A program made the position numbers and the translations under genes. A DNA stretch of 64,000 nt from NCBI GenBank assembly GCA_902617625.1, contig CACMXJ010000004.1, positions 29,206 through 93,205 of the forward strand, in the 5' to 3' direction. The first letter of the stretch is position 1. Every line of letters begins with the position of its first letter. The notes below the pieces were generated by a model, which searched no databases, was not told where the DNA came from, and saw only the letters and a program-made list of their open reading frames with translations. Below are positions 34,181 to 60,187 of this stretch, piece after piece. This DNA is from an uncultured Pelagibacteraceae bacterium. GTDB lineage: Bacteria > Pseudomonadota > Alphaproteobacteria > Pelagibacterales > Pelagibacteraceae.

Positions 34181-34270
34181 TGGCGGAGAGACTGGGATTC
34201 GAACCCAGGAAAGAGTTGCCCCTTTGCCGGTTTTCAAGACCGGTGCTTTCAACCGCTCAGCCATCTCTCC
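34181..34270 (-). tRNA. tRNA-Ser (anticodon UGA), class II with a long variable arm
   Basis: Reverse complement: GGAGAGATGGCTGAGCGGTTGAAAGCACCGGTCTTGAAAACCGG...GGGTTCGAATCCCAGTCTCTCCGCCA. The anticodon loop is CTTGAAA. Confidence 0.9.
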
Positions 34271-44420: not shown

Positions 44421-44867
44421 TTAATTAAGATCTTTAGCAAAAAGTATTAAATCTCTCAAGGTTTCAAATAAATTATATAATACAAGTTCTAAACTCGGGA
44501 AAATATTGCTTAATGGTTCCTTGAATGTGTCTAATACAATTATGATTGCAACAAAAGTTATTATAGAAACAATTATATAACTTAAAAATTTTCCAAAGGT
44601 AAAATTATATTTTGGTTTATATTTGACTAATTCTGATCCTGGTTTTAAAGATGCTTTGGATACTGCTTTATTAATATTTTCATCTTTATATAAAAATTTT
44701 TTTTTTTTAGCAGGCTTATCAATTAATGGCTCTGGTTGTTCGCTAACATTTTTATTAAAGAACCATGTTTGATCACATGATCCACATTTCAATAATCTGC
44801 CTTTATCTGGAATTAAGTTTTCATCTACCTTGAATTTTTTTTCACCGCATGGACAAATTATTATCAT
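44421..44867 (-). CDS. MJ0042-type zinc-ribbon protein with a C-terminal TM segment
   Basis: MIIICPCGEKKFKV...LKCGSCDQTWFF has two CxxC-like pairs. One TM helix. Confidence 0.65.
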   Translation of the reverse strand: MIIICPCGEKKFKVDENLIPDKGRLLKCGSCDQTWFFNKNVSEQPEPLIDKPAKKKKFLYKDENINKAVSKASLKPGSELVKYKPKYNFTFGKFLSYIIVSIITFVAIIIVLDTFKEPLSNIFPSLELVLYNLFETLRDLILFAKDLN

Positions 44868-44960
44868 TAGCTCTATATAACAGATTCTGATTAAAAATCC
44901 CTTGTTTTACACATCTTTATACATTGAAAAAATAAATAACTACTGTATTAGTACTTCATT

Positions 44961-45037
<77 letters not shown>

Positions 45038-45043
45038 GCAATT

Positions 45044-45325
45044 ATGAAAAAAGCAAAAATTTATAAACCTAATAAAACAGCCATGCAATCTGGGTTAGGC
45101 AAAATCGATAAATGGGTTCTAGAATTTAAAACTAAAGATCCTACAACAAATCCTTTAATGGGATGGGAAAGCTCATCTGATACTTATACTGAATTAAAAT
45201 TAGAATTTACTACCAAAGAACTAGCGATTACTTATGCAAAAAAAAACAAAATTGATTTTGAAATAATAGAACCAAAGCAAAGAAAAGTAGTAAAAAAATC
45301 ATATGCAGATAATTTTTTAAAATAA
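45044..45325 (+). CDS. ETC complex I NDUFS4 (18 kDa subunit)-like protein
   Basis: 93 aa, AKIYKPNKTAMQSG...NPLMGWESSSD. Starts 6 nt after the tRNA-Pro CCA. Confidence 0.8.
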   Translation: MKKAKIYKPNKTAMQSGLGKIDKWVLEFKTKDPTTNPLMGWESSSDTYTELKLEFTTKELAITYAKKNKIDFEIIEPKQRKVVKKSYADNFLK

Positions 45326-45329
45326 ATTT

Positions 45330-46328
45330 ATGTTTAAATTTTTTACAGATAAAAGATGGCATTTATGGAGTATAGGAGGTACTATACTTATTCTTGCTGC
45401 TACGTGGTATCAAGTTCAACTAGATGTAAGAATTAATGAATGGTTTGGAGAGTTTTATGATACTTTGCAAAAAGCATTAGCAGAGCCGGGTGCAGTTACT
45501 GAAAAAGAATTTATTGTTTATCTTTTTACATTTGCGAAAATTGCGGCTGTTTATATTCTAGTTGTTATATTTAGTGATTATTTTACCAGTCATTGGACTT
45601 TTAGGTGGCGAACAGCTATGGCTGATTTTTATCATGATAAATGGACTTTTGCTTCATCAATAGAGGGTGCATCTCAAAGAGTTCAAGAAGACACTCTTAA
45701 GTTTGCCAGAATAATGGAAGGCTTAGGCGCAGAACTTTTAAGAAGTGTAATGACATTAATCGCATTCACTCCGATTTTATGGGGTTTGTCTAAAAGTATT
45801 ACTGTACTGCCATGGATAGGTGAGGTTAATCATGCTTTAGTTTGGGTAGCTATTATCTCTGCTTTAGGTGGTACTTTTATACTCGCTGCTGTTGGGATCA
45901 AATTACCTGGTATTGAATATGATATTCAAAAAGAGGAGGCTGCATACAGAAAAGAGTTAGTTCTTGGTGAAGAATTTAAAGAGAATGCGCAACCTGTGAG
46001 AATTGATGACTTATACGGTGGTGTAAGAAAAATTCATTATAAAATGTACTTTCATTATCTTTATTTTAACGCTGTTAAATGGAGCTATTTACAAGGAATG
46101 GTAATTGTTCCATACTTAGCTTTAGCTCCAACAATCGTAACTGGAGCAATAACATTAGGTTTTGTTCAACAAATTATCAGAGCATTTGGTAGAGTAGAAA
46201 CTTCATTACAGTATTTGGTAAGAAGTTGGCCAATAATTGTTGAATTAATTTCAGTATGGAAAAGATTAAATGAATTTGAAAACAGACTTAAAATTAATAC
46301 AGAAAAAACCTTAAAAGAAAAAATTTAG
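45330..46328 (+). CDS. SbmA/BacA-like family transporter (membrane domain only)
   Basis: 332 aa, WYQVQLDVRINEWFGEFYD, IEGASQRVQEDT. Confidence 0.8.
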   Translation: MFKFFTDKRWHLWSIGGTILILAATWYQVQLDVRINEWFGEFYDTLQKALAEPGAVTEKEFIVYLFTFAKIAAVYILVVIFSDYFTSHWTFRWRTAMADFYHDKWTFASSIEGASQRVQEDTLKFARIMEGLGAELLRSVMTLIAFTPILWGLSKSITVLPWIGEVNHALVWVAIISALGGTFILAAVGIKLPGIEYDIQKEEAAYRKELVLGEEFKENAQPVRIDDLYGGVRKIHYKMYFHYLYFNAVKWSYLQGMVIVPYLALAPTIVTGAITLGFVQQIIRAFGRVETSLQYLVRSWPIIVELISVWKRLNEFENRLKINTEKTLKEKI

Positions 46329-47278
46329 TGGCTCTAAATAAAGAATTAATTGATAAAATTGTAAAAGTAACTTCTAAAGCTGCAATATCTTGCCATAAAT
46401 TTATTGGTAAAAATGATAAAATAAAAGCTGATAAAGCTGCAACAGACGCAATGAGAAAAGAAATTAATAAACTTAACTTTAATGGAGAAGTTGTAATTGG
46501 GGAAGGTGAACTTGATAAGGCACCAATGTTGTATATTGGAGAAAAATTAGGAGCAGGTGGAAATTTAGATATTGATATTGCTGTTGATCCTCTTGAAGGA
46601 ACAAATTTTGTAGCAAAAAATTTACCTGGTGCATTATCTGTTATATCGATTGCAGAAAAAGGGAATCTTTTTAATGCACCTGAAACTTACATGGATAAAA
46701 TTGCTACTTCCAATGAAGTACCCATTGATGCGATAGATCTAGATTTTCCACTTGAGAAAAATATTAGAAATATAGCAGACTCTTTAAATAAAGATATTAA
46801 AGATATAAATGCATGTTTGCTTGATAGACCAAGGCATAAAGAAATAATCGATAAACTCAATGAAATGAATGTTAAAATGAAATTAATTCCTGATGGTGAT
46901 GTATCTGGAGTGTTAATGGTTACAGATAAAAAATATAAAGTAGATATTTTTTTGGGAATTGGTGGTGGTCCTGAGGGTGTTCTGGCAGCCTCAGCTATTG
47001 ATGCTTATGGATGTAAATTTCAAGGAAGATTCCTTTTTGAAAAGGAAGAAGACATTTCTAGGGCAAAAAAAATGGGCATAAAAGATTTAAAAAAAAAATA
47101 TGATTTAAATGAAATCGTTAAAGGTGACTCGATTTTTTGTGCAACTGGTATTACTTCGGGAGATCTTGTTAAGGGTGTAGATTTAATTGATAATAGTTAT
47201 ATTACCGAAACACTAGTTACTCACAAAAGCTCTAAAACATGTAAAATTTTTATAACTGAAGACATTATAAAAACTTGA
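46328..47278 (+). CDS. glpX: Class II fructose-1,6-bisphosphatase GlpX
   Basis: 316 aa, ADKAATDAMR, DPLEGTNF, GIGGGPEGV. GTG start overlapping the previous stop. Confidence 0.9.
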   Translation: MALNKELIDKIVKVTSKAAISCHKFIGKNDKIKADKAATDAMRKEINKLNFNGEVVIGEGELDKAPMLYIGEKLGAGGNLDIDIAVDPLEGTNFVAKNLPGALSVISIAEKGNLFNAPETYMDKIATSNEVPIDAIDLDFPLEKNIRNIADSLNKDIKDINACLLDRPRHKEIIDKLNEMNVKMKLIPDGDVSGVLMVTDKKYKVDIFLGIGGGPEGVLAASAIDAYGCKFQGRFLFEKEEDISRAKKMGIKDLKKKYDLNEIVKGDSIFCATGITSGDLVKGVDLIDNSYITETLVTHKSSKTCKIFITEDIIKT

Positions 47279-47313
47279 TAAATATAATTTTTTACAATAA
47301 AAGGTCCAGATTT

Positions 47314-47388
47314 GGTCCCTTCGTCTATCGGTTAGGACACGTGGTTTTCATCCTCGAAAGAGGGGTTCGATTCCCCTAGGGACCGCCA
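47314..47388 (+). tRNA. tRNA-Glu (anticodon UUC)
   Basis: GGTCCCT/AGGGACC acceptor, anticodon loop TTTTCAT, GAGGGG-TTCGATT-CCCCT T arm, encoded CCA. Confidence 0.9.
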
Positions 47389-47391
47389 ATA

Positions 47392-47643
47392 ATGTCATAT
47401 TTTGTATACTTAATTGTTTCAAATCTCAAAAAAAACAAAAAAATCTCATATGTTGGATATACAAATAACTTAAAGAAAAGGCTAAGTTTACATAATTCAG
47501 GAAAAGGAGCAAAATTTACTAGAGGTAAAAAATGGAAGCTAGTTTACTATAAAAGATATGATTCGAGAGCTATTGCAATGAAAAATGAATTTTTATTAAA
47601 AAAAAATTATAAACTTAGAAAAAAACTTAAAACAAATATATGA
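47392..47643 (+). CDS. GIY-YIG nuclease-superfamily small protein (UPF0213-like)
   Basis: YFVYLIV...YVGYTNNLKKRLSLHNSG. Starts 3 nt after the tRNA-Glu CCA. ATGA overlap with the next gene. Confidence 0.85.
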   Translation: MSYFVYLIVSNLKKNKKISYVGYTNNLKKRLSLHNSGKGAKFTRGKKWKLVYYKRYDSRAIAMKNEFLLKKNYKLRKKLKTNI

Positions 47644-49769
47644 AGATATCTATTTTACTGCCGTTAAAGGAGAATTTTTCACCTTCTTATGCTGGAGCCG
47701 TATCTTTATTTATAAATGATACATTAAAATTCAGTAAGTTTAGAAAAGATATAACCGTTTTTGGATATACAGAATATAAAAAAAAATTTAATCAAAAATA
47801 TTTTAATATAGATATTAAAAAAAATTTTTTTTCAAGCCAAAATAAAGAATATGTAAAAAAATTTATTGAAATTGAAAAAAAAAATAATTCTAAAATTATA
47901 GAATTACATAATAGACCGATTTATCTAAAATATCTCGTCAATGATTTAAAAGAAAAGGATTATATTCTGTATTTTCATAATGACCCTTTAACGATGTCTG
48001 GTTCTAAAAGTATCAAAGAAAGATCATTTTTGTTAAATAATTGTTACAGAATAGTTTTTAATAGTAATTGGTCAAAAAAAAGATTTTTACAAAAAATGAA
48101 GTCTGATGCGATTAATAGTGAAAAATTAATTGTAATCAACCAGTCAGCCTCAAAAAATAAAATTAACTTTAAAGATAAAAAAAAATTAATTACTTTTGTT
48201 GGAAAACTTAATAGATCTAAAGGTTATGATCTTTTTGGCAATGCAGTAATTAAAATTCTAAGAAAATATAAAGATTGGTATGCATACGTTGTTGGAGATG
48301 AACCAAGAGATAAACTTAATTTTAAACATAGTCGACTTAAAATTTTTGGGTTTAAAGAACATAAAGAAGTTATAAAGATTTATAAAAAAACTAGTATAGC
48401 TGTTGTTTGTTCTAGATGGGATGAACCTTTCGGCAGGACAAGTCTAGAAGCTGCAGCAAACGGATGTGCGGTTATAATAAGTAATAGGGGAGGTTTACCC
48501 GAAACAATTACTAATGGTCGAATACTTAAAAACTTAAATGTTCATAATGTTTATAAGAATATTGATAATTTAATTAAAAATTCATCTATTAGAAAAAAAT
48601 ATCAAAAATTGTCCTATAAAAACTTTTATTTGTCTCATGAACATGTATCAGAAGAAATAGATAAAATTAGAAATAATTTAATTAAGATAAGCAGACCTTT
48701 TTTGTCTAATTCACAATCAAATTTAAGAATATTGCATATTACTAATTTTAATGAGAGACATAATGGTAGACTTTTTTTTAATACTGGGAGAAGATTGAAT
48801 AACGGCTTTATTAGACTTGGACATAGTGTTTTAGAATTTAGTGACAGAGATATTGTAAGCAGAGGGAAATCTCTAAAGGATTTTTATGGGTCTGATACAT
48901 TAAATGATAAATTAATTAAAACTTGTTATCATTTTAAACCAGATTTAATTGTTTTAGGGCATGCAGATATGATATCAAAAGATATTTTATACAATCTTAA
49001 AAAAGATTACTCAAATCTAAAAATAGCTCAATGGTTTCTTGATCCTTTGAACAAAAATGGTCCTGATTTTCAGAAAAATAAGAGACGAATTCTAGATAAA
49101 TCCGAAGTAATAGATACAAATTTCTTAACTACTTCTCCTGATGCTTTGGGTTTTTTACCTAAAAATAAATCAAATTATTTCATACCAAATCCATCAGATC
49201 AATCGATGGAAACGCTTAATAACTTTAAAAAAAATTGCTCTAATGATGTTTTTTTTGCCCTAAGTCATGGAGTACACAGAGGTCAATTAAAAAGTCGATC
49301 ATCTGATGATAGGGAAAAATTCATTAAATCTCTAATCAATAAATGTAAGAATATAAGATTTGACATTTTTGGTATGAATAATATTCAACCAATCTGGGCT
49401 GATCAATATTTCAAGAATATATCCAATTCAAAAATGGGTCTTAATTTAAGTAGGGGAACACCAATAAAATATTATAGCAGTGATAGAATTACTCAAATTA
49501 TAGGTAATGGTTTAGTAACATTAATTGATGAAAAAACTTGTTATGGTGATTTTTTTGATGATACTGAAATGGTTTTTTATAAGAATATAACAGATCTATC
49601 CGAAAAAATTGAGAAGATTTCAGAAGATGAAAAGCTCCGTAAGACAATTGGACACAAAGGTAAAACTAAATACATGAAATATTTTAATTCAACTCTTGTA
49701 GCAGATTTTATTATTAATAAGACTTATGAAATAAATGGCGCAAAAAAATATTTATGGCATAAACCATAA
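47640..49769 (+). CDS. Two-domain glycosyltransferase: N-terminal GT4/GT1-fold plus a C-terminal CgeB-like (Glyco_trans_1_2-type) domain
   Basis: 709 aa. EPFGRTSLEAAANGCAVIISNRGGLPE is the E-x7-E region. The second half (LRILHITNF..., YYSSDRITQIIGNGLV) resembles a second Rossmann-type GT module. Confidence 0.75.
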   Translation: MKISILLPLKENFSPSYAGAVSLFINDTLKFSKFRKDITVFGYTEYKKKFNQKYFNIDIKKNFFSSQNKEYVKKFIEIEKKNNSKIIELHNRPIYLKYLVNDLKEKDYILYFHNDPLTMSGSKSIKERSFLLNNCYRIVFNSNWSKKRFLQKMKSDAINSEKLIVINQSASKNKINFKDKKKLITFVGKLNRSKGYDLFGNAVIKILRKYKDWYAYVVGDEPRDKLNFKHSRLKIFGFKEHKEVIKIYKKTSIAVVCSRWDEPFGRTSLEAAANGCAVIISNRGGLPETITNGRILKNLNVHNVYKNIDNLIKNSSIRKKYQKLSYKNFYLSHEHVSEEIDKIRNNLIKISRPFLSNSQSNLRILHITNFNERHNGRLFFNTGRRLNNGFIRLGHSVLEFSDRDIVSRGKSLKDFYGSDTLNDKLIKTCYHFKPDLIVLGHADMISKDILYNLKKDYSNLKIAQWFLDPLNKNGPDFQKNKRRILDKSEVIDTNFLTTSPDALGFLPKNKSNYFIPNPSDQSMETLNNFKKNCSNDVFFALSHGVHRGQLKSRSSDDREKFIKSLINKCKNIRFDIFGMNNIQPIWADQYFKNISNSKMGLNLSRGTPIKYYSSDRITQIIGNGLVTLIDEKTCYGDFFDDTEMVFYKNITDLSEKIEKISEDEKLRKTIGHKGKTKYMKYFNSTLVADFIINKTYEINGAKKYLWHKP

Positions 49770-49770
49770 T

Positions 49771-50604
49771 ATGATTTCCATATTAATTCCAACCTTTAAT
49801 AATTTAGATTATCTAAAACTTTGTTTAAAAAGCTTGAAGAAAAATTCTTCTTTTAATCATGAAATTATAATTCATATTAATGACGGTTCAGATGGCACAT
49901 TAGATTTTATTAAAACTAACAATTACAAACACACAAGTTCACATAACAATATTGGACTTTGCTCTTCAATTAATAAAGCTGCTAAATTAGCTTCGAGTCA
50001 ATATATTCTTTATAGCCACGATGATATGTATTTTTGTCCAGAATGGGATAAAGTTTTGATGAATGAAGTTGAAAGTTTAAACCATGATAAATTTTATCTA
50101 TCTGGTACAATGATTGAACAAAACTCTGGACATATAGTTTACGATTTTGGAATTGACCTAGAAAATTTTAAGGAAGATGAATTACTCTCAAAATATAAGA
50201 GTGTTAACTTTTATGATCATCAGGGTACCCATTTCGCTCCACATTTAGTTTCAAAAAAAATGTGGAATAAGGTAGGTGGTTTTAGTGAGGAGTTTAATCC
50301 TGGTATTGCATCTGATCCAGATTTTAATATGAAATTATGGAAAGAAGGTGTGAGAATATTTAAAGGTTTAAATGATTTCAAAGTTTATCATTTCGGCTCA
50401 TTAACAACTAGAAAAAAAAAGAATTTAATCCAAAATAGGGGAGACAAGACATTTTTAAAAAAATGGGGCTTTTCTACAAAATTTTTTAAAAAATATTATT
50501 TAAAATCTAAAACAAAATATGAAGGTCCTTTAAGTGAACCAAAAAAAACTTTTAATTATTTCTTAGATTTATTAATTTGTAAAATAAGATTATTTTTCAC
50601 ATAA
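49771..50604 (+). CDS. Family 2 glycosyltransferase
   Basis: MISILIPTFNNLDYL and SHDDMYF (DxD-like). I prefer the ATG at 49771, 1 nt after the upstream stop, over the track start at 49735. Confidence 0.8.
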   Translation: MISILIPTFNNLDYLKLCLKSLKKNSSFNHEIIIHINDGSDGTLDFIKTNNYKHTSSHNNIGLCSSINKAAKLASSQYILYSHDDMYFCPEWDKVLMNEVESLNHDKFYLSGTMIEQNSGHIVYDFGIDLENFKEDELLSKYKSVNFYDHQGTHFAPHLVSKKMWNKVGGFSEEFNPGIASDPDFNMKLWKEGVRIFKGLNDFKVYHFGSLTTRKKKNLIQNRGDKTFLKKWGFSTKFFKKYYLKSKTKYEGPLSEPKKTFNYFLDLLICKIRLFFT

Positions 50605-50610
50605 AATTTT

Positions 50611-51306
50611 ATGTCTAAATTTATTGATAAATTAAGTATCTTTAAAAAAAAAATTTATTCTGCTAAAAAAAGTTATTCTTTTGGTGGATGTGATTTATTA
50701 ATTGATTATATTTTTAAATCAAAAAAAAGGGGGTTTTACCTAGATGTAGGTTGTCAACATCCCGTATCTAATAATAACACATATTTACTTTATAAAAGAG
50801 GTTGGAGCGGAATAAATATTGACTTAGACCCAAAAAATATAAGATTATTTGATTTAGAAAGACCAAATGAAATAAATATTTGTAAATGTGTATCTTCCGA
50901 TAATTCGGAAAAAGATTTATTTTTTTTTCACTCTGGATCACCGATTAACTCATTAGAAAAAAAAACTACCAAAGATAAATCAAATTTTTCCTTAAAAAAA
51001 ATTGAGACATTTACACTTAATTCAATTTTAGAAGATTATAAGATACAACATATAGACTATTTTAATCTAGATGTTGAAGGTCATGAATTAGATGTTTTAA
51101 ATAATTTCAATATTCAAAAGTATAAACCAAAAGTTATCTCTGTTGAATTTATCGATTTTCAAATGAGTGAATTAGAATTTAGAAATAACAATGTAGATAG
51201 AATACTTAAATCAGAACTGTACAAATATTTTACATCAAACAATTATCATTTTGTCAATTGGACACATGCAGATTTAATTTTTGTTCACGAAACTTTTAGA
51301 GATTAG
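50611..51306 (+). CDS. FkbM-family SAM-dependent methyltransferase
   Basis: FYLDVGCQHPVSNNNTY, DYFNLDVEGHELDVL. Confidence 0.8.
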   Translation: MSKFIDKLSIFKKKIYSAKKSYSFGGCDLLIDYIFKSKKRGFYLDVGCQHPVSNNNTYLLYKRGWSGINIDLDPKNIRLFDLERPNEINICKCVSSDNSEKDLFFFHSGSPINSLEKKTTKDKSNFSLKKIETFTLNSILEDYKIQHIDYFNLDVEGHELDVLNNFNIQKYKPKVISVEFIDFQMSELEFRNNNVDRILKSELYKYFTSNNYHFVNWTHADLIFVHETFRD

Positions 51307-52217
51307 ATCTTAATTTTATTTAATGCATTATTTTTAAATAGATTTGCTTCTTGTATATATCTTCTTACCATTTGAGTTGTTTTATGCCCTGTCATTGCCA
51401 TAATACTTCTTTCATCTGCACCTATTTCAGCTGTCGATGTCGCAAATCCAGATCTCAAACTATGACCGGCGTATTTTGTTTTATCCAACCCGGCTAGCAA
51501 TGCATATTTTTGAATTGTCAAAGCTACTGTTTTGTCAGATATGTTGAATACTTTACCGCTGTTAATTTTGGCATGTGTAATCCATTCTTTTAAAGACATA
51601 ACAGGACAATAGATTTTATTTTCAAAGTAGGGGATTGCCTTAGTCATTCCAAGACCAGTTTGATCTGTCTTTGACCTTTTTACCAATATTTTTACTCCTT
51701 CATTAACAAAATCAATATCCTCATATTCAATTGAGACTAGTTCTGATCTTCTAAAGCCTCCTGCAAATCCAATTAATAATAAAGCTCGATTTTGATATTT
51801 TTTATACTCATTTTTTTCTTCATTAATTACTTTAATAAGTAATTTTAAATCATTGATTAATAATGGTTTTTTAGATATTTGTTTTACTCCCATCTTTCTT
51901 TTTATTCCCATTAAATTTTCAGCAATGATTGGATGTTTTGTATCGATATAATGCCCTTTTAATCTATGAATAACTTTTATTGAGGCTAATCTTCGTTTCA
52001 AAGTGCTAAATTTACTAAAAGAGCTTAAATGAGTTAAGTATAAAGCTATAATTTTAGGATCACTCGGCATTGATGAAAAACCATTTTTTGTGCAGAAACT
52101 TGAAAAATCTTTGAAATCAGATTGATAAGCTCTCAATGTATTATTCGCTTTAGAATTTTTTAAATTCTTTAAAGTCTCTAATTCAAGGCTTTTTACGTTT
52201 GTTATTAGTTCATTCAT
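51303..52217 (-). mobile_element. Tyrosine site-specific recombinase/integrase (Cre-like subgroup, not XerC/D)
   Basis: 304 aa. LRAYQSDFKDFSSFC is a SAM-like N-terminal domain. GFAGGFRRSEL carries the catalytic Arg, HSLRSGFAT is HxxR, and TGHKTTQMVRRYI carries the catalytic Tyr. The stop overlaps the FkbM stop. Confidence 0.88.
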
Positions 52218-52223
52218 ATATTT

Positions 52224-52248
52224 TTCCGATAACCATTAATTATCGGAA
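52224..52248. promoter_or_regulatory. Perfect 9-bp inverted repeat TTCCGATAA-N7-TTATCGGAA, 7 nt upstream of the integrase start
   Basis: Read directly (52224-52232 and 52240-52248). Candidate operator, recombination-site arm or 5'-UTR hairpin. Confidence 0.35.
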
Positions 52249-52297
52249 GTTATATAATAAGTGATTTTTGATGTCAATAGTTTAAATTTAAATAATT

Positions 52298-52474
52298 ATG
52301 GGTTCTATAGATGGAGAAATTCCTGCGGTATGGTTTTTGATAAGTTCAATTGGTTTTATAATTTTAAGCTATATTCAGTATAAAAATACCGGAAAAAGTA
52401 TTAACACAATTTTTTTAACCATAATGGCTATTTTGTTTCTCTTGAGCTATTTTATATTGCTGTTTAAAACTTGA
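52298..52474 (+). CDS. Possible 58-aa two-TM micro-protein
   Basis: My own read: MGSIDGEIPAVWFLISSIGFIILSYIQYKNTGKSINTIFLTIMAILFLLSYFILLFKT*. It is below the ORF-track cutoff. Chance ORFs of this size are common in AT-rich DNA. Confidence 0.3.
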   Translation: MGSIDGEIPAVWFLISSIGFIILSYIQYKNTGKSINTIFLTIMAILFLLSYFILLFKT

Positions 52475-52569
52475 TTTATCCCCACTATTCACAAAGAAAT
52501 AAGAAAAATAAGAGAATCAACTAAAAAGTGATACATTAAATAAATACCATCTGTTATTGTCTTAATGAA

Positions 52570-52755
52570 TTAAGAGGCAACTCTTAACTGGCCAATTGGA
52601 GAAAAGCCGAGAGGTACAATTCCAGGGGGCAGAAAGCTTCACAAAGCATCGCTGAACATGTGGAGTGGGAGGCATGGCGGTAGCGCATCAACGACGTGCC
52701 AAAACAACTGTTCTTTGCACCCTTAAAAGTGCAAGGAAACAGGGGTTTTTTCTTC
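52570..52755. ncRNA. GC-rich structured element of unknown class: candidate ncRNA, tRNA-fragment scar or decayed coding remnant
   Basis: 61 of 110 nt are G+C in 52591-52700, against 13 of 60 in 52501-52560 (hand counts). Hairpins: TTAAGAG-GCAA-CTCTTAA (52570-52587), GCC-GAGA-GGT (52606-52615), GCTT-CACA-AAGC (52636-52647), CTTTGCAC-N8-GTGCAAGG (52713-52736), followed by GGGGTTTTTT. No ORF of 60 aa or more on either strand. Confidence 0.4.
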
Positions 52756-52756
52756 A

Positions 52757-53032
52757 ATGAAACTTAGAGGAACAAAATTTCAATTAAAAGTTTGGAAATA
52801 TCTCAAAACCATACCCAAAGGTAAGGTAAAAACTTACAAACAAGTGGCAATTAGCATAAAAAGGCCTAAATCAGCTCGAGCTGTGGCTAATGCTTGCGCT
52901 AAAAACCCATATGCCCCAAAAATACCTTGTCATAGAGTGATTAGATCAGATGGAGCTCTTGGAGGATACTCAGGAAGAGGTGGAATCAAGCAAAAGCTTA
53001 AATTACTTAGATCTGAAAAAGCAGCCATTTAA
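52757..53032 (+). CDS. ogt: Methylated-DNA--protein-cysteine methyltransferase, C-terminal (active-site) domain only
   Basis: 91 aa, GTKFQLKVWKYLKTIPKGKVKTYKQVA, NPYAPKIPCHRVI (PCHR active-site Cys). No N-terminal domain. An in-frame stop lies at 52724-52726. Confidence 0.85.
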   Translation: MKLRGTKFQLKVWKYLKTIPKGKVKTYKQVAISIKRPKSARAVANACAKNPYAPKIPCHRVIRSDGALGGYSGRGGIKQKLKLLRSEKAAI

Positions 53033-53043
53033 CCTTATTTTAA

Positions 53044-53066
53044 GGATTTTTTTCTTTAAAAAATCC
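53044..53066 (+). terminator. AT-rich hairpin GGATTTTT-N7-AAAAATCC, 11 nt after the ogt stop (weak candidate terminator)
   Basis: Read directly. 8-bp stem of only A/T plus GG/CC, with no clean downstream U-tract. Confidence 0.3.
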
Positions 53067-53492
53067 AGTAAAATCAACATTTTTTGACCTTTTTTTTTAA
53101 TTTTCTCTTAAATACCATAATTCACCCTTTAGTTGTACCATGTATCAGCCTACGCTTAAAATAGACCCCTATTTGGCCGTTTAAATGCTATATTCAATTA
53201 GTGCATCGCTCTACTATTTAACGATATCAACGCTTTTAGACTATCCCAAATATTCATGATTTCCCTTTTTATTATGCTTAAAAAGTCCCAATTTTAAATG
53301 ATAATTTAATATTTTTTAGATTTAGTTCAAAGTTTAAGCACTGAAACTAAAGTCAACTATGTTTTACATTTAAATATCAATTTCTATCAAATTCTTGTTA
53401 AATTTAATACTTTATAAAAATTTAATAATTACAATAGTTTACAATGTATAATTAATCTAATACTTTATATATTAGTAAATAAATAATACATA

Positions 53493-54344
53493 TTATTTAA
53501 TTTTTTTAACTATATTCTCTCTCCTAGAGATATAGATACCACTTAATACAATAATAGATAATCCTAAAAAAGTCCAATTATCTGGGAAATCACTAAAGAA
53601 GTAATAACCTATGATTATGTTGGTAACGATCTCAAAGTAGCTAAATGGTGCTAATTTAGAGGCATCAGCGTATTTTAGAGATAATATTAAAAATAAATGA
53701 CCTATACAGGCAAAAATTCCTATAGCTGCCATCATAGACCACTGATTTAAAGAAGGCGCAACCCAAACAAATGGCATTATTGTAGAAACTATTATGGCCC
53801 CCACTACACCAGTTAACAATAAAGTTAATAAAGGGTTATCTGAAGTGCTTAATTTACGAGTAATAATTAAATAAAACCCATACATTATTCCAGTTCCAAG
53901 AGCTGCTAAACTTGCTAAGTTAATTTCTACAAAACCAGGTCTTATAACTACTAATGAACCTATGAATCCTATAATTACCGCTGACCATCTTCTAAATCCC
54001 ACCCTCTCTCCTAAAAAAATTGGAGAAAAAGCTGTAACAATCAAAGGTGCAACAAAAGCTAAAGTTAATGCTTTTGCTAATGAAATTACTGAGATTGCAT
54101 AAAAAAAACAAATATTGGCTGTTAAAAGAATTATACCTCTTATAAATTGTAATTTTGGTTTATCTGTCCAAACAAGATTTTCTCTAAAAAAGAAAAACAT
54201 AATTGGAAGAGTAAATGCAACTGTAAAAAAATACCTTGCCCATGTAATTTGTAAAACAGGAAGGTCTGCACTTAAATACTTTGCAAATCCGTCCATAATT
54301 GGAAGCATTACCCACGCTAAAAGATTGAAAGTTATAGCCTTCAT
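53493..54344 (-). CDS. EamA/DMT-family transporter
   Basis: 283 aa, 10 TM segments, duplicated EamA-type halves. Confidence 0.85.
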   Translation of the reverse strand: MKAITFNLLAWVMLPIMDGFAKYLSADLPVLQITWARYFFTVAFTLPIMFFFFRENLVWTDKPKLQFIRGIILLTANICFFYAISVISLAKALTLAFVAPLIVTAFSPIFLGERVGFRRWSAVIIGFIGSLVVIRPGFVEINLASLAALGTGIMYGFYLIITRKLSTSDNPLLTLLLTGVVGAIIVSTIMPFVWVAPSLNQWSMMAAIGIFACIGHLFLILSLKYADASKLAPFSYFEIVTNIIIGYYFFSDFPDNWTFLGLSIIVLSGIYISRRENIVKKIK

Positions 54345-54362
54345 GAACTTAAAGGATATAGA

Positions 54363-55259
54363 TTAATTAAAGTATTTTAAAGCAAAGAATACAACAATTG
54401 GAATAGTTATAAAAGACATCAAAGTTGAAACAACTATTGTACTAGCAACACTATCAACAATTTTTTTTGGTGAATACATGCTGCCAACTAGATAATTCAA
54501 TATAGCGCTTGGCATTGCGCTTTGTATGAGTAAAACACCTGCAGCCAATCCAGACAAATCAAAATTATAAATCACAGCAAATGCTATTAAGGGTCCTATT
54601 ATTACCCTGCATAAGGATAAAATAATTGAGTTTTTCAATGAAAATCTAAATTTAGTAAGAGCAATACCTAATGACATTAAAACTAAGAAAATTGTTGCAT
54701 ATGTTAAAAGGAATGTTGTGTTTTCAAGAAATAAAGGTGTATCAATTTCAAAATATAAAAAGAAAACAGATATAATAATAGCGTACACGGGTGGACTTTT
54801 AATCAAAATATCAAAAGAAAAACTTTTTTTTGCTAAAAAAACACCTAGCGTAAAATGGAACAAAATTATGACAGAAGCTATAGCAGAAGCAACTCCAAGA
54901 CCTTGAGTGCCATATGCAAAAAGGCAAATTGGAACACCCATATTACCGGTATTTGGTAGAATTAATGGAGGAAGCTCCATACTTAAATCCTTTTTAAGAA
55001 AAAAAAGAAGCAAAAGCCCAATAATTGCAAAACCAGCAATCATTATTATAGCATATATAAAATAATGAATAAAAATATCTAAAGTAATTCCAGTTGTTGT
55101 CACCGTATAAAAAATCATTGCTGGTGTACCAATGTTGCCAGCAAAATTTGTTATGAAATTAGTATCGAATTTAGGGTTTTTCTTACCGAGATAATAACCC
55201 ACGCCAATAACAAAAAAAACAGGAAAAATAACTTCAAAAATTTTAATATAAATTTCCAT
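54363..55259 (-). CDS. AEC (auxin efflux carrier) family transporter
   Basis: 298 aa polytopic protein. The N-terminus IFEVIFPVFFVIGVGYYLGK is typical of the AEC family. Confidence 0.8.
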   Translation of the reverse strand: MEIYIKIFEVIFPVFFVIGVGYYLGKKNPKFDTNFITNFAGNIGTPAMIFYTVTTTGITLDIFIHYFIYAIIMIAGFAIIGLLLLFFLKKDLSMELPPLILPNTGNMGVPICLFAYGTQGLGVASAIASVIILFHFTLGVFLAKKSFSFDILIKSPPVYAIIISVFFLYFEIDTPLFLENTTFLLTYATIFLVLMSLGIALTKFRFSLKNSIILSLCRVIIGPLIAFAVIYNFDLSGLAAGVLLIQSAMPSAILNYLVGSMYSPKKIVDSVASTIVVSTLMSFITIPIVVFFALKYFN

Positions 55260-56551
55260 TAATTATATAATCTAATTAATGTTGGAAATTTTAAAATATT
55301 TCTATTCTTTTTAAATATCGATAAACAATTTCTTGCATTTTTTTCTGATGTTTTATGGGTAATTATAACTATAGTAGCTGAATTTCTTTTTTTATCAGGT
55401 GTTTGTATAATTCTTTTTACAGAAATTCTATATTTAGCCAGTCGATTAGTTATAGAAGAGAGGACACCTTGTTTATCTTTAACTTCAAATCTTAGATATA
55501 GAGAATTTGAATATTCATCATTATTAAAAGCCTTTACAGCTTTTCTTTTATTTGAGGAAATTCCAAAGGGATATTTTATGTTTCCTCTTAGAATAGACAA
55601 TAAATCAGATAATAAAGAAGATGAAGTAGGTCCTGGTCCTGCGCCCTCCCCTTGAAGTATACTTTCACCAACGGGCTTACCCTCCGTGATAACAGCGTTC
55701 ATGACACCATTTACATTACCTATGTATGTATCTTTACCAACTAAACATGGATGAACAGTCTCAAATAAACGATTATTTATCATTTCACATATACCAAGTA
55801 ACTTAATTCTAAGATTTAATTGATTTGCAATTTTAATATCTTTTAAATCAATATTTTCTATACCTTCCATTATAGATTTATGATGTGAAATTTGATTATT
55901 GAATGCAAGAGCTGATAAAATTCTAACTTTTGCAAAAGCATCAAACCCATTCAAATCTAATTTAGGATTACCTGGTTCAGCATAACCAAGTTCTTGAGCT
56001 TTTTTTAAGACTTTATCAAAAGTCTCATTTGAATTTTCCATCTCAGTTAAGATGTAATTAGTTGTTCCGTTTAAAATTCCATAGACTTTCTTTATCTTAT
56101 TTGTAGCTAAACCCTCTTTAATCGTTCTAAGTATTGGAACTCCTCCAGCAACAGAGGCTTCAAATTCTAAATTTACATTATTCTTCTCAGCTAATTTAGC
56201 TAATTCATTACCATGTTTTGAAATTAAAGCTTTATTTGGTGTTATAACATTAATCTTATTCTTTAATGCCATCACAACAATTTTTTTTGAAATTCCATCA
56301 GATTGACCAATAGACTCAAATAAGATGTCGATCTTTTTTTCTTTTAAAATTTTAAGAGGATTAGTATAAAAAATTTTCTTATTAATATTGTATTTTCTCT
56401 TTTTATTTTTATTTTTTGCAGAAATTGCAACGATATTTATCTTTTTCCCCGTTTTTATTTCTATTTCTTTTTTTTTTAACCTTAATTCATTGTAAAGATA
56501 AATGCCTATTTGACCCAAACCAACAATTGCAATGTTAACTATTTTATTCAT
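55259..56551 (-). CDS. hom: Homoserine dehydrogenase
   Basis: 430 aa, VGLGQIG NAD-binding site, LNGTTNYILT, and a C-terminal ACT domain. Confidence 0.92.
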   Translation of the reverse strand: MNKIVNIAIVGLGQIGIYLYNELRLKKKEIEIKTGKKINIVAISAKNKNKKRKYNINKKIFYTNPLKILKEKKIDILFESIGQSDGISKKIVVMALKNKINVITPNKALISKHGNELAKLAEKNNVNLEFEASVAGGVPILRTIKEGLATNKIKKVYGILNGTTNYILTEMENSNETFDKVLKKAQELGYAEPGNPKLDLNGFDAFAKVRILSALAFNNQISHHKSIMEGIENIDLKDIKIANQLNLRIKLLGICEMINNRLFETVHPCLVGKDTYIGNVNGVMNAVITEGKPVGESILQGEGAGPGPTSSSLLSDLLSILRGNIKYPFGISSNKRKAVKAFNNDEYSNSLYLRFEVKDKQGVLSSITNRLAKYRISVKRIIQTPDKKRNSATIVIITHKTSEKNARNCLSIFKKNRNILKFPTLIRLYN

Positions 56552-56705
56552 CTATATTTGGATAATCACTGTTATCTACGTAAACTTTTAAATTTGATTT
56601 AAATTCTTCAAAAGTTAGATCTTTTGAAAAATTAATCTTTTTCTCAGTTTGTACAGGGGCACAAGAAATAACTAAAAACAAAATTAATAATGGTAATTTT
56701 TTCAT
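56544..56705 (-). CDS. 53-aa putative lipoprotein micro-ORF between argC and hom
   Basis: My own read: MKKLPLLILFLVISCAPVQTEKKINFSKDLTFEEFKSNLKVYVDNSDYPNIDE*. LVISC is a lipobox. ATGA overlap with the argC stop and an 8-nt overlap with the hom start. Confidence 0.5.
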   Translation of the reverse strand: MKKLPLLILFLVISCAPVQTEKKINFSKDLTFEEFKSNLKVYVDNSDYPNIDE

Positions 56706-57724
56706 AATAATCCCTCATTATCTTTAAAACCAAATTTTAAATTCATATTTTGAACTGCTTGACCTGCTCCTCCTTTAATAAGATTATCAATGACCGATAA
56801 AATTATTATTTTATCTTTAAATTTAGTTCTGCAGACAGAAATTAAGCAATAATTAGTATTCATAACGTCATTTGTGCTTAAAAGAGAGTTAACACTCTTT
56901 ATTTTTACAAATTTATTCTTTTTATGAAATTTTTTCAAAATATTTTGCACATTATTTAAGGTAGAACCTGGTTTTAAATCTAAATAAATAGTGCTTAAAA
57001 TTCCTCTAAACATTGGAATAATATGAGGTGTAAAAGTAAAATTGATTTTTGAAGAAGTGTGATTTTTTAATTCTTGATGAATTTCTGAATTATGCCTATG
57101 AAATCCTACTCCATATGCACTAAGGGATTCGTATAAATTTTTATTTTTAAATTTTTGGTGTACTCCTCTACCCGCTCCAGAATATCCAGATTTTGAGTCT
57201 ATAATGATATTGTTAAAATTAATTGATCTTTTTTTGATTAATGGAATAAGTGGTAAAAGTATTGATGTAGGATAACAGCCTGGACATCCAATAATGCTAA
57301 ATTTTTTAACTAGTTTCCCTGTTATTTCAGGTAAAGCATAAATACTATTTTTTATATTACTTAATGCCTTATGTTTTTGTTTATACCATTTTAAATAATC
57401 AGAACCTTTTTTAAGTCTGAAATCTGCAGCTAAATCAATTAAAGTATTTTTTTTTAACAAATCCTTTGAGATTACTTGCGCTTCTCCATTCGGCAGAGCG
57501 GTAAAAATAATATTAACATTATTTAAGTATTTCTTATTATATTTTGTAATTTTAGGTAACTTTTTTGACTTTAACGAAGTGTCATAAGATGAGATTTTTT
57601 TTCCAACAGAGGAATTTCCACATAGATATTTAATATTAACATTCTTGTGTTTAATTAATAATTTAATTAATTGAACACCAATATATCCAGTTGATCCAGC
57701 AATTAGTACATTAAGCTTAGGCAT
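56702..57724 (-). CDS. argC: N-acetyl-gamma-glutamyl-phosphate reductase
   Basis: 340 aa, GSTGYIG, and GCPGCYPTS carrying the active-site Cys. Confidence 0.92.
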   Translation of the reverse strand: MPKLNVLIAGSTGYIGVQLIKLLIKHKNVNIKYLCGNSSVGKKISSYDTSLKSKKLPKITKYNKKYLNNVNIIFTALPNGEAQVISKDLLKKNTLIDLAADFRLKKGSDYLKWYKQKHKALSNIKNSIYALPEITGKLVKKFSIIGCPGCYPTSILLPLIPLIKKRSINFNNIIIDSKSGYSGAGRGVHQKFKNKNLYESLSAYGVGFHRHNSEIHQELKNHTSSKINFTFTPHIIPMFRGILSTIYLDLKPGSTLNNVQNILKKFHKKNKFVKIKSVNSLLSTNDVMNTNYCLISVCRTKFKDKIIILSVIDNLIKGGAGQAVQNMNLKFGFKDNEGLL

Positions 57725-57757
57725 TTTATATTATAACAGTTAAAAGTTAAAAAAGAA

Positions 57758-58195
57758 TTATCTTTTAGAAAATTGAAAGCTTCTTCTAGCTTTTTTTCGT
57801 CCAGGTTTTTTTCTTTCAACTGATCTGGAGTCTCTAGTGGTTAATTTTTCGGTTTTAAGTGTAGATTTCAATTTTTCATCAAATAAAACTAAAGCTTTAG
57901 AAATGCCATGAACCATTGCTCCTGCTTGTCCTGTTGGACCCCCACCTTTTACACTACACTTTACATCAAATTCTGTTGCCTGATTTATAAGTTCAAATGG
58001 TCTTACAATTTGCATTTTATGATTATCGCTTGAAAAATAATCACTAAAAAGCTTACCATTTACATAAATTTTACCCGAACCTTTTTTTAACCAAACTTTA
58101 GCTATAGAAGTTTTTCTTCTTCCAGTTGCATACTTACTATCTTTAAAGTCCAGTTTTATTTTTGGGGCTTTGGTTGGTGCTTGAGTATTTTCCAT
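57758..58195 (-). CDS. rpsI: 30S ribosomal protein S9
   Basis: GRRKTSIA, GGGPTGQAGA, and a C-terminal KR. Confidence 0.97.
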   Translation of the reverse strand: MENTQAPTKAPKIKLDFKDSKYATGRRKTSIAKVWLKKGSGKIYVNGKLFSDYFSSDNHKMQIVRPFELINQATEFDVKCSVKGGGPTGQAGAMVHGISKALVLFDEKLKSTLKTEKLTTRDSRSVERKKPGRKKARRSFQFSKR

Positions 58196-58196
58196 T

Positions 58197-58655
58197 TTAA
58201 TTTCGTGTAATATTTTTTGAGTTTAATTTATCCAACTGTATAACTTGAGGATTTTGAGCTGAATGAGGATGATCATTTCCTACATATATTTTCAATTTAG
58301 TAAGTTGTTTTTTTCCCAATACTCCTCCTGGGAGCATTCTTTTTACGGCAAGTTTTAAAGCCTCACCTGGTTTTTTTTCAAATAGTTTCTCTGGTGTAGT
58401 TTCTTTAATTCCACCAGGATGACCAGTGTGTCTGTAGTATTTTTTATTTTGAAATTTATTTCCAGTGAATTTGATTTGTTCGATGTTTTTAACAACTACA
58501 AAATCTCCATCGTCCATATGTGGTGTGAAAGTTGTTTTATTTTTACCTCTAATAATTTTTGATATAACAGTTGCTAATCTGCCTACCACAGCATTTTTAG
58601 CATCTATTTCATACCAATTTGACGATAATTGATCTTTTTTAAGGAATTTTGTCAT
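58197..58655 (-). CDS. rplM: 50S ribosomal protein L13
   Basis: WYEIDAKNAVVGRLA, YYRHTGHPGG. Confidence 0.97.
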   Translation of the reverse strand: MTKFLKKDQLSSNWYEIDAKNAVVGRLATVISKIIRGKNKTTFTPHMDDGDFVVVKNIEQIKFTGNKFQNKKYYRHTGHPGGIKETTPEKLFEKKPGEALKLAVKRMLPGGVLGKKQLTKLKIYVGNDHPHSAQNPQVIQLDKLNSKNITRN

Positions 58656-58738: not shown

Positions 58739-58806
58739 TTGCCGATTTGTTCCTATTGCGGGCTTACAGCTAAAGAGGAAGTCATCATACAAACTCGGTA
58801 GGCATT
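58739..58806 (+). promoter_or_regulatory. SAM-II-like aptamer candidate (first of two related elements) in the metY leader
   Basis: The core ATTGCGGGCTTACAGCTAAAG (58755-58775) shares the pattern ATTG.G.G.CTT...AGCTAAAG with the downstream element. It is enclosed by TTCCT/AGGAA and CCGATTTGT/ACAAACTCGG helices. Confidence 0.45.
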
Positions 58807-58811
58807 TGAAC

Positions 58812-58855
58812 TATATTGTGCGCCTTGTATAAAGCTAAAGCACTAAAAAAGGAGT
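58812..58855 (+). promoter_or_regulatory. SAM-V (metY-type) riboswitch candidate overlapping the Shine-Dalgarno sequence
   Basis: ATTGTGCGCCTTGTATAAAGCTAAAGCACTAAAAAAGGAG. GTGC (58818-21) can pair with GCAC (58840-43). The A-rich tail runs into AAGGAG, 5 nt before the metY ATG. The SAM-V class was described upstream of Pelagibacter metY. Confidence 0.6.
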
Positions 58856-58858
58856 AAA

Positions 58859-60187
58859 ATGAGTAAAAAAAGAAATAATCCTGAAACCATTGCCATACAT
58901 GGTGGTGATTACAGAAGTGACCCAACAACTAATGCTGTTGCTGTACCAATATATAGAACAACATCATACCAATTTCAAAGTACTGAACATGCAGCAAATT
59001 TATTCGCATTAAAGGAATTTGGAAATATCTATACTAGGATTATGAATCCTACTAATGATGTTTTAGAAAAAAGAATTGCAGCATTGGAAGGTGGATTATC
59101 TTGTGTAACAGTTTCATCTGGACAAACTGCTTCAAGTTTTGCTGTTTTAAATGTAGCTCAATCAGGTGATAATATTGTTAGTTCAACAGATCTTTATGGT
59201 GGAACAGTTTCATTATTTACACATACATTGAGTAAACTTGGAATTGAAATAAGATATGCTGATCCAAGTGATCCTAAAAACTTTGAAAAGGCAATAGATA
59301 ATAAGACCAGAGCTTTTTATGGTGAGACATTACCTAATCCATATTTAAGAGTGTTCCCTATCAAAGAAGTTTCTGATATTGGAAGAAAATACAATATTCC
59401 ACTGATAATGGATAATACTGCTGCGCCAGTGATATGCAAACCAATAGAGCATGGAGCGGCCGTTGTTATACATTCATTAACAAAATATATTGGCGGACAT
59501 GGAACTGCTGTTGCTGGAAGCATAGTAGATAGTGGTAACTTTGACTGGACTGCAGATCCTAAGAGACAACCTTTATTTAATGAACCTGATGCAAGTTATG
59601 GTGGTGTAATTTGGGGAAAAGCTGTACCAGATTTAACAGGAGCTAATGTACCTTTTGCAGTCAGAGCAAGAGTTTGTTTGCTTAGAGATTTAGGTTCAGC
59701 TTTAGCACCAGATAACGCTTTTGCAATAATCCAAGGTCTCGAAACAGTGGCTTTAAGAATGAAACAACATTGCGAAAATGCTGGAAAAGTAGTTAATTTC
59801 TTAAAAAAACATAAAGAGGTCACTAAAGTTATATACTCAACAGAACATGAAAAGAAAATTGCAGATAGAGCTAAACAATATCTTAAAGGTGGAAACGGAC
59901 CAATGGTTGGTATTGAACTTAAAGGTGGTATTGAAGCTGGGAAAAGATTTATTGAGTCTTTAAAGATGTTCTATCATGTAGCAAACATTGGAGATGCAAG
60001 AAGTTTAGCTATACACCCTGCTAGCACTACCCATAGTCAATTAAATGAGAAAGAATTAGCAGCAACAGGTGTGACTCAAAGTTATGTTAGACTTTGTATA
60101 GGTATTGAGCACATTGATGATATTATTGATGATTTAGATCAAGCTTTAAACAAGTCCTCAAAAGGAAATTTAAAAGCTGTTAGTTAA
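58859..60187 (+). CDS. metY: O-acetylhomoserine sulfhydrylase (PLP-dependent)
   Basis: 442 aa, ETIAIHGG, HSLTKYIGGHG (PLP Lys), AIHPASTTH. Confidence 0.92.
   Translation: MSKKRNNPETIAIHGGDYRSDPTTNAVAVPIYRTTSYQFQSTEHAANLFALKEFGNIYTRIMNPTNDVLEKRIAALEGGLSCVTVSSGQTASSFAVLNVAQSGDNIVSSTDLYGGTVSLFTHTLSKLGIEIRYADPSDPKNFEKAIDNKTRAFYGETLPNPYLRVFPIKEVSDIGRKYNIPLIMDNTAAPVICKPIEHGAAVVIHSLTKYIGGHGTAVAGSIVDSGNFDWTADPKRQPLFNEPDASYGGVIWGKAVPDLTGANVPFAVRARVCLLRDLGSALAPDNAFAIIQGLETVALRMKQHCENAGKVVNFLKKHKEVTKVIYSTEHEKKIADRAKQYLKGGNGPMVGIELKGGIEAGKRFIESLKMFYHVANIGDARSLAIHPASTTHSQLNEKELAATGVTQSYVRLCIGIEHIDDIIDDLDQALNKSSKGNLKAVS

Follow-up and report, generated by a model that had tools for sequence, protein, structure and literature searches.

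IMES RNAs take their name from 'Identified in Marine Environmental Sequences'. IMES-2, listed in Rfam as the IMES-2 RNA motif (RF02035), was reportedly described from marine environmental sequences by Weinberg, Perreault, Meyer and Breaker in Nature in 2009, and IMES RNAs are said in the same work to be highly abundant in ocean metatranscriptomes; the motif was reportedly noted later in the SAR11 isolate HIMB114 as well. The family is therefore already known and is rediscovered here. The present analysis concerns a 64,000-nucleotide (nt) stretch of DNA from an uncultured Pelagibacteraceae bacterium (hereafter, the window), in which a GC-rich region of about 190 nt (52565-52756) was found to hold a copy of this RNA. 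IMES-2 is not among the P. ubique RNA motifs described earlier (Meyer et al. 2009). In its comparison with RF02035, the window's RNA agrees in all four hairpins, in the conserved loops and in its marine SAR11 origin, with nothing disqualifying; the published model stops at 52702, without the fifth hairpin and putative terminator found here.

Identity of the GC-rich region

When the whole window was scanned with cmscan against Rfam 15, positions 52563-52702 of the plus strand matched RF02035 with 142.4 bits and an E value of 6.4e-37, the gathering score of the family being 54.7 bits. The match covers model positions 1 to 141 of 141, is untruncated and has posterior probabilities near 1.0, and a permissive scan of the region (E ≤ 10) returned no Rfam family besides IMES-2, except for a chance 13-bit miRNA match. 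What the GC island encodes is IMES-2, a structured non-coding RNA that Rfam already lists and that is widespread in SAR11, and an error in the Rfam match is not a plausible ground for doubting this identity. Since a routine Rfam scan names the region, nothing is added to the RNA catalogue. An earlier reading of the letters alone (the sequence-only reading) had called the region an unclassified, perhaps novel RNA; the comparison of Infernal models with Rfam that it had itself proposed settled that point the other way, the region being a full-length RF02035 member. Its broader claim, a structured non-coding RNA on the plus strand, is borne out by the Rfam match, by the folding energy and by covariation. 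Taken as a whole, we consider it very probable that the IMES-2 gene occupies 52563-52751 of the plus strand and specifies a small non-coding RNA of marine SAR11, about 185 nt long, as a stand-alone unit.

The compositional signal that had drawn attention to the region is real. With an overall GC content of 28.4%, the window reaches at least 50% GC per 110 nt at three places only, namely, tRNA-Ser, tRNA-Pro and the IMES-2 region, the last being the highest (55.5%); the earlier hand counts (61 of 110 nt being G+C in 52591-52700 and 13 of 60 in 52501-52560) proved exact on recount. For 52563-52756 on the plus strand, the folding energy is -65.4 kcal/mol, dinucleotide shuffles giving -48.7 +/- 3.8 kcal/mol (z = -4.45; none of 200 as good); a comparison with shuffled controls was among the checks that the sequence-only reading had proposed. 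The minus strand of the same segment is unremarkable (z = -0.96).

To collect relatives, a degenerate pattern taken from the conserved 5' half of IMES-2 was scanned over one genome per GTDB species. At least 120 loci were recovered, each from a different Pelagibacteraceae single-amplified genome (SAG) or metagenome-assembled genome (MAG) serving as species representative, and the window plus 117 of the listed loci make up the main alignment of 118 sequences, to which the counts below refer unless another set is named. Over the four Rfam helices and the fifth hairpin, 92.4% of 6721 cells are paired and 35 pairs show double changes; none of 500 shuffles reaches this level of pairing, and slid controls remain at 33-42%. 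Without guidance, RNAalifold recovered P1 to P4, with compensatory changes in 26 of the 36 pairs that it drew. All four Rfam hairpins covary, covariation among homologues being another of the checks that the sequence-only reading had proposed: pairing in P1 to P4 is 89-100%, and each of the four helices has double changes.

The same alignment bears on the idea that the region is a decayed or unannotated coding fragment, such as the 57-amino-acid (aa) open reading frame (ORF) running antisense through 52584-52757. Such an ORF does exist on the minus strand, and stop codons are naturally scarce where an AT-rich genome has GC-rich DNA. Against this, substitutions are compensatory in the helices rather than patterned by codons, the Rfam match is full-length and no frame is kept open: across the 118 sequences, none is reliably open, the minimum open stretch being 17-22 codons in every frame. 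The earlier remark that the region holds no ORF was thus essentially right, the antisense ORF not being kept open in relatives. That ORF is a by-product of base composition, and the coding reading, to which we give next to no credence, is refuted by the pattern of covariation.

Helices, loop-loop pairing and the fifth hairpin

The positions of the hairpins are collected in Table 1. In P2, compensatory changes were found in 10 of 15 pairs, with 92-94% of cells paired. P4 contains one non-canonical position, at which 52677 faces 52694 (RNA positions 115 and 132; columns 120-138) in a G.A mismatch that is present in 118 of 118 sequences, an invariance that suggests a specific tertiary or recognition role. 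Several of the helices drawn by hand in the sequence-only reading stand, namely, TTAAGAG-GCAA-CTCTTAA (P1), GCC-GAGA-GGT (the tip of P2), GGCA...TGCC (the outer part of P4) and CTTTGCAC-N8-GTGCAAGG followed by a T-run, which is the terminator hairpin discussed below, correctly drawn. Two others, CTGG/CCAG plus AATTG/CAATT and GCTT-CACA-AAGC, turned out to be pairings peculiar to this single sequence; the pairings backed by covariation are CUG/CAG, CC/GG and UUGGA/UCCAG in P2 and GCUUCACA/UGUGGAGU in P3.

The loops of P3 and P4 (L3 and L4) are related to each other. Within the family, both carry (U)AGCGCU(A), and in three sequences of the genome set AGUACU stands in both loops. In the window, L3 reads UCGCUG as against GCGCUA in the family consensus (GCAUCGCU, departing from GUAGCGCU), and L4 reads UAGCGC. 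As a one-sided test, metagenomes were scanned in such a way that only the core of L3 was forced off the majority sequence, L4 being left unconstrained. The scan yielded about 27 true IMES-2 copies, with 12 of 12 tested passing the Rfam threshold at 113-149 bits, and in every metagenomic case L4 had changed to match the altered L3. Five central L3/L4 combinations were found (GCGC/GCGC, GUAC/GUAC, GUGC/GCAC, GAAC/GUUC and GUUC/GAAC), the six-base variants being GUACUA/UAGUAC, GUGCUA/UAGCAC, GAACUA/UAGUUC and GUUCUA/UAGAAC; two sequences with GUGCUA/UAGCAA keep 5 of 6 pairs. Because some of these variants are not palindromic, L3 must pair with L4, and the same covarying variants exclude a single motif that is recognized twice, once in each loop.

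In the kissing-loop alignment, which comprises 50 sequences, pair 88-123 is CG in 24, UA in 23 and AU in 3, and pair 89-122 is GC in 29, AU in 19 and UA in 2, with no unpaired cells in either. The kissing helix has 97.7% of its cells paired, against 87.3% in shuffles (0 of 500 reach the observed value) and 5-60% when the partner is slid. By the covariation in these alignments, the predicted L3-L4 helix is shown. The matched stem lengths of P3 and P4 (8 and 9 positions) and the 4-nt linker between them fit a side-by-side, intramolecular arrangement, although covariation alone cannot separate intramolecular from intermolecular pairing of the two loops. A parallel is the L2-L3 interaction of the purine riboswitch, in which, likewise, adjacent hairpins of matched length are joined through their loops, which in IMES-2 pair by Watson-Crick covariation; in contrast to that riboswitch, IMES-2 has no closing helix, no three-way junction and no consistent downstream gene, and the likeness implies no ligand. 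The structure line that cmscan gives for RF02035 shows no loop-loop pairing. If it has not been annotated already, the kissing loop would be a small structural refinement of a known family.

Beyond the end of the RF02035 model lies a fifth hairpin (P5). It is present in the minimum-free-energy fold, and 10 of its 13 pairs covary; its sequence turns over completely between lineages, with the structure conserved. We read P5 and the U-run behind it as the likely intrinsic terminator of IMES-2. A generic terminator scan found none here, P5 having been missed because its T-run starts 3 nt past the stem. Together with the kissing loop and about 90 nt of upstream boxes described below, the fifth hairpin and its U-run may go beyond what the Rfam model holds.

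Table 1. Positions of the RNA, DNA and gene features at the IMES-2 locus, in window coordinates.
Feature	Position	Strand	Description
Upstream box 1	52476..52493	+	TTATCCCCACTATTCACA; consensus TTATCC(A/C)C-N3-ATT(C/A)ACA, about 87 nt before the RNA
Upstream box 2	52516..52534	+	ATCAACTAAAAAGTGATAC; -47 to -29, overlapping the expected -35 region
Extended -10-like element	52552..52560	+	TGTTATTGT; TGnTAnnnT at -11 to -3, TG and TA positions conserved
P1	52570..52587	+	7-bp hairpin with GCAA tetraloop; 100% of cells paired in 118 sequences, two pairs with double changes
P2	52588..52632	+	Long hairpin with GAGA tetraloop; GAAA and CAA strands of the internal loop conserved
P3	52636..52666	+	8-bp hairpin with 15-nt loop L3; 8 of 8 pairs covary, 96.6% of cells paired
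P4	52671..52700	+	9-position hairpin with invariant G.A mismatch and 12-nt loop L4; three pairs with double changes
L3-L4 kissing interaction	52649-52654 with 52681-52686	+	6 bp in the family consensus
P5, putative terminator	52708..52751	+	13-bp hairpin with a single A bulge (52708-52742); GGG and T6 (52746-52751) follow
Tyrosine recombinase ('integrase')	51303..52217	-	Pfam Phage_integrase and SAM-like N-terminal domain; divergent from orf58 and IMES-2
orf58	52298..52474	+	Hydrophobic 58-aa ORF; tblastn matches in 56 context A loci, ending about 92 nt before the RNA, 51-93% identity
ogtC	52757..53032	+	91-aa O6-alkylguanine-DNA-alkyltransferase-like protein; Pfam DNA_binding_1, E = 1.6e-32; NCBIfam TIGR00589, 100 bits versus a cut-off of 46.4

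Chromosomal contexts, upstream boxes and neighboring genes

Two arrangements account for the genome loci. In context A, which is that of the window and of about two-thirds of the genome loci, a variable glycosyltransferase block is followed by the tyrosine recombinase gene (minus strand), orf58, IMES-2 and ogtC (all plus strand), and beyond ogtC, on the minus strand, by genes for EamA and Mem_trans proteins, hom, argC and rpsI. In context B, found in about one-third (about 35 loci), recX and cysQ (minus strand) and mnmA (plus strand, ending about 64-106 nt upstream) precede IMES-2 (plus strand), and a convergent gene for a 233-aa membrane protein that ends near +175 follows it, then a metC-like gene and a major facilitator superfamily (MFS) gene. 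Nearly all divergent metagenomic copies are in context B, with flanking proteins that are 48-73% identical. The RNA has evidently changed its chromosomal site once, as judged by these arrangements, and an old relocation of the recombinase-orf58-IMES-2 block is possible.

The same upstream boxes precede IMES-2 in both contexts. Box 1 stays at about -91 to -68 in 118 loci, which come from both contexts, and 87 of the 118 have at most one mismatch to TTATCCACA. Its resemblance to a DnaA box was considered and set aside as a resemblance only: the ninth base is not conserved, and one-mismatch matches to the DnaA box occur elsewhere in the window at chance frequency (23 found, 23.1 expected). The motif of box 2, TCAACnAnAAAGTGATAC at -47 to -29, is at least 90% conserved across 117 loci; 108 of 118 loci, drawn from both contexts, have AGTGAT at -34 to -37. 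An RNA helix between boxes 1 and 2 was rejected as well, the two showing no covariation and the pairing being broken in context B copies; since covariation is lacking, box 2 is read as a DNA element. About 90 nt of conserved upstream boxes are shown by the alignment to travel with the IMES-2 gene, and they would be conserved elements of that gene's own control region, that is, a regulator-binding region. Transcription probably starts near 52566-52568, just before P1. A generic promoter scan listed weak promoters only, the -10-like element not being among them.

A side observation concerns the 3' end in context B. At about +145 to +200 in loci L021 and L028, as in similar loci of this context, there is a covarying fifth hairpin without a clean U-run (e.g., ...AAAUUUAAGUGGUUCUCUUCC), with the convergent gene ending right at the hairpin. 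The 3' end may be formed differently there than in context A, or the hairpin may terminate transcription in both directions.

Context bears on the possibility that IMES-2 acts in cis, as a riboswitch or attenuator leader controlling the ogt-like gene by way of the terminator at 52708-52751. In the window, the ATG of ogtC lies 5 nt past the T-run of that terminator, too close for a promoter of its own; in 68 of the 105 loci with enough flank, ogtC starts at +185 to +198, and a folded core followed by a terminator does resemble an aptamer with its expression platform. A leader, however, would be expected to lie consistently upstream of its regulated gene class and on the same strand, and ogtC is downstream in those 68 of 105 loci. 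Context B copies (about one-third of the genome loci, nearly all of the divergent metagenomic ones) are followed by a convergent gene and have nothing to regulate downstream, and in L069 ogtC is about 190 nt further away. P5 changes its sequence completely between lineages, and on inspection neither an accompanying change of the core, as expected of an anti-terminator, nor an alternative pairing with it was seen; furthermore, the RNA has its own conserved upstream boxes in both contexts. Because context B has no same-strand gene downstream, IMES-2 is no obligatory ogt leader, and its conservation at two chromosomal sites argues against a cis-regulatory role; we regard such a role as unlikely. 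The free variation of the P5 sequence with its pairs kept, the shared upstream boxes and the convergent gene of context B all argue for a stand-alone unit instead.

The ogt-like gene itself, which the sequence-only reading had taken to be truncated, is a neighbor of the RNA and not a part of it, and is no decayed fragment. Its product is 68-95% identical and of the same length in 78 loci and keeps the active-site PCHRV motif, and ogtC is, by this conservation, a stand-alone alkyltransferase C-terminal domain and not a pseudogene. The relatives listed in a search with the ogtC-EamA proteins all have at least 90% identity, and all lie in the window's synteny. On the other side of the RNA, the sequence-only reading had placed an integrase; the recombinase gene and the ogt-like gene do flank the RNA, as it said, and a conserved 58-aa ORF that it did not name intervenes between recombinase and RNA. 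This ORF, orf58, which neighbors the RNA in context A only, has no match in Pfam or to other families and probably encodes a real small membrane protein, to judge from its conservation and hydrophobicity.

The recombinase scores 78 bits, versus 330 for the XerC and XerD cut-offs of NCBIfam, and is neither XerC nor XerD; an exact-match look-up of its sequence returned no record. Its proximity raised the idea, voiced in the sequence-only reading as an integrase target or cargo, that the RNA gene is the attachment site or cargo of this enzyme and belongs to an integrative element, in the way that genomic islands use tRNA and tmRNA genes. The recombinase gene lies 346 nt upstream in two-thirds of loci, a glycosyltransferase block of variable length extends beyond it, and the existence of two different chromosomal sites means that the RNA has moved at least once. 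The flanks, however, hold none of the att-like direct repeats that an element would leave: the repeats, direct or inverted, near the recombinase, tRNA-Glu and the RNA (44000-56000 and 47200-53100) are AT-rich and of low complexity only, and none repeats a part of the RNA or tRNA-Glu. A blastn search against phage records left 52475-52760 unmatched, and 13 loci that a looser 5'-half pattern found on viral contigs were all chance matches, none being IMES-2 by cmscan. Moreover, the recombinase is a stable syntenic gene and not a sporadic one (of the 81 loci whose flanks are long enough, 49 have it in the same position, at 60-91% identity), and it neighbors the RNA in about two-thirds of genomes only, the RNA being equally conserved in the mnmA-site copies, where no recombinase is near. 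Since context B copies do without it, the recombinase is no required partner, and we consider the attachment-site or cargo explanation very improbable. A likeness to IS110 bridge RNAs and HEARO/omega RNAs, which guide the recombinase or nuclease encoded beside them, namely, a complex RNA with two similar loops beside a recombinase and at the edge of a variable region, likewise goes no further, as the loops of IMES-2 covary with each other and not with flanking DNA, the neighbor is a divergent tyrosine recombinase and the RNA is fully conserved without an adjacent recombinase.

Two further observations concern this flank. The block at 47392-51306, between GIY-YIG/tRNA-Glu and the recombinase, encodes glycosyltransferases of types GT1 and GT2 and an FkbM methyltransferase, and its length and content vary between genomes (loci L014-L133), GIY-YIG being 2.35 to 7.1 kb from the RNA; it resembles a small, flexible island for surface glycosylation, with the conserved recombinase as its boundary. 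In one SAG (AG-365-E11, CACDDC010000019.1; locus L047), IMES-2 runs only to about nt 95, its 5' half being joined to a copy of the recombinase gene that is inverted and truncated at the N terminus (about 263-1180 in the orientation of IMES-2). Its inverted join, over about 600 nt, suggests a multiple-displacement-amplification chimera and not a real rearrangement.

Further downstream, the gap between the convergent ogt-like and EamA genes (53033-53492, about 460 nt) is long for a streamlined genome and contains a block of about 125 nt (53120-53245) that is at least 90% conserved in 43 loci. Rfam gave no match to this block at E ≤ 5; neither strand showed a fold signal (z = -0.30 and +0.76), and the block holds no inverted repeats and no ORF of at least 30 aa. 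Across about 46000-58200, genes lie on the plus strand up to 53032 and on the minus strand from 53493, and the cumulative GC skew peaks near 50-53 kb, a pattern that would fit a replication terminus; the non-XerC/D tyrosine recombinase is located 1 kb away. P. ubique has been described as lacking a dif/Xer system (Carnoy and Roten 2009, PMC2731167), and no dif-like palindrome was found in the region of about 46000-58200. Finally, a SAM-V riboswitch aptamer (RF01826) was detected at 58791-58857 on the plus strand (80.8 bits versus 41), upstream of a metC-like region at about 58919-60013. SAM-V riboswitches are typical of Pelagibacter, and this one is therefore consistent with a Pelagibacter origin of the window.

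Possible mode of action and meaning for SAR11

Under the reading of IMES-2 as a stand-alone gene, transcription would start near 52566 from an extended -10-type promoter lying under a conserved regulator-binding region and would end at the terminator at 52708-52751. In the window's lineage, read-through from IMES-2 would be the most likely source of transcript for ogtC. The RNA itself would have a compact body, in which P3 and P4 are held next to each other by two GNRA tetraloops and the L3-L4 kissing helix.

The most conserved bases are found in the tetraloops, in the internal loops, in the junctions (purines) and in the loop-loop helix. This pattern, with its GNRA tetraloops, internal-loop and junction purines, invariant P4 G.A and kissing helix, favors a role that depends on shape, and we tentatively propose, as one possibility and at well short of even confidence, that IMES-2 is a particle whose shape lets it bind a protein or some other partner, as a component of a ribonucleoprotein (RNP) or as a sponge. 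We give less weight to linear antisense regulation and to an ogt riboswitch; for the one linker tested, the conserved GCAGAAAG, no complement was present in the window apart from its own site. As to how such an RNA might work, and not as to membership, the abundant bacterial small RNAs that bind proteins (6S RNA, CsrB/RsmZ and Y RNA) offer a comparison: they share with IMES-2 a stand-alone gene, an own promoter and terminator (here predicted), conservation centered on shape without a linear seed and, judging by the very high level reported for IMES-2 in metatranscriptomes, abundance, but they have no sequence or structural similarity to it.

Two other uses of the kissing loop deserve mention, both of which we think improbable. 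L3 and L4 might pair between molecules, giving symmetric dimers or larger particles made of RNA only, or the kissing helix, with strands that read like a tRNA D-arm, might mimic part of a tRNA and capture a tRNA-binding factor. ROOL, GOLLD and OLE, 'exceptional' bacterial RNAs, were recently shown to form such RNA-only assemblies. Most members of the IMES-2 family carry the self-complementary UAGCGCUA, which permits both intramolecular and intermolecular pairing, and if intermolecular assembly were true, it could explain the extreme abundance that IMES-2 is said to have. As for tRNA, the L4 segment GGUAGCGCAUC (52678-52688) is identical to 11 nt of the tRNA-Pro D-arm (44978-44988), a length that 13 of 2000 shuffles reach, and the P1 segment GGCAACUCUU (52576-52585) is identical to 10 nt of the variable arm of tRNA-Ser (34181-34270, minus strand). 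No tRNA-like covariance-model match was obtained in the IMES-2 region at E ≤ 10. These identities could be due to chance, to a shared hairpin vocabulary or to tRNA mimicry.

Set against the preferred reading, in which IMES-2 is a stand-alone gene whose product would act through its shape, are several points. With 5 of 6 pairs (4 Watson-Crick, one G.U) and a U.C mismatch, the window's kissing helix falls short of the consensus in strength. Many context B copies lack a clean U-run after P5, and termination may differ there. The tight spacing of ogtC in two-thirds of loci shows that in the window's lineage the RNA doubles as a 5' leader. The start site and 3' end of IMES-2 are positions that we infer, and its abundance is as reported in earlier work (Weinberg et al. 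2009). Finally, binding to a partner is a guess from the architecture.

IMES-2 is an orphan, a conserved and elaborately folded RNA of the most abundant bacterial group of the ocean. A host range of at least 120 species representatives, a full transcription unit as predicted here, two chromosomal sites and a loop-loop helix proven by covariation provide handles for experiments on it in cultivable Pelagibacter.

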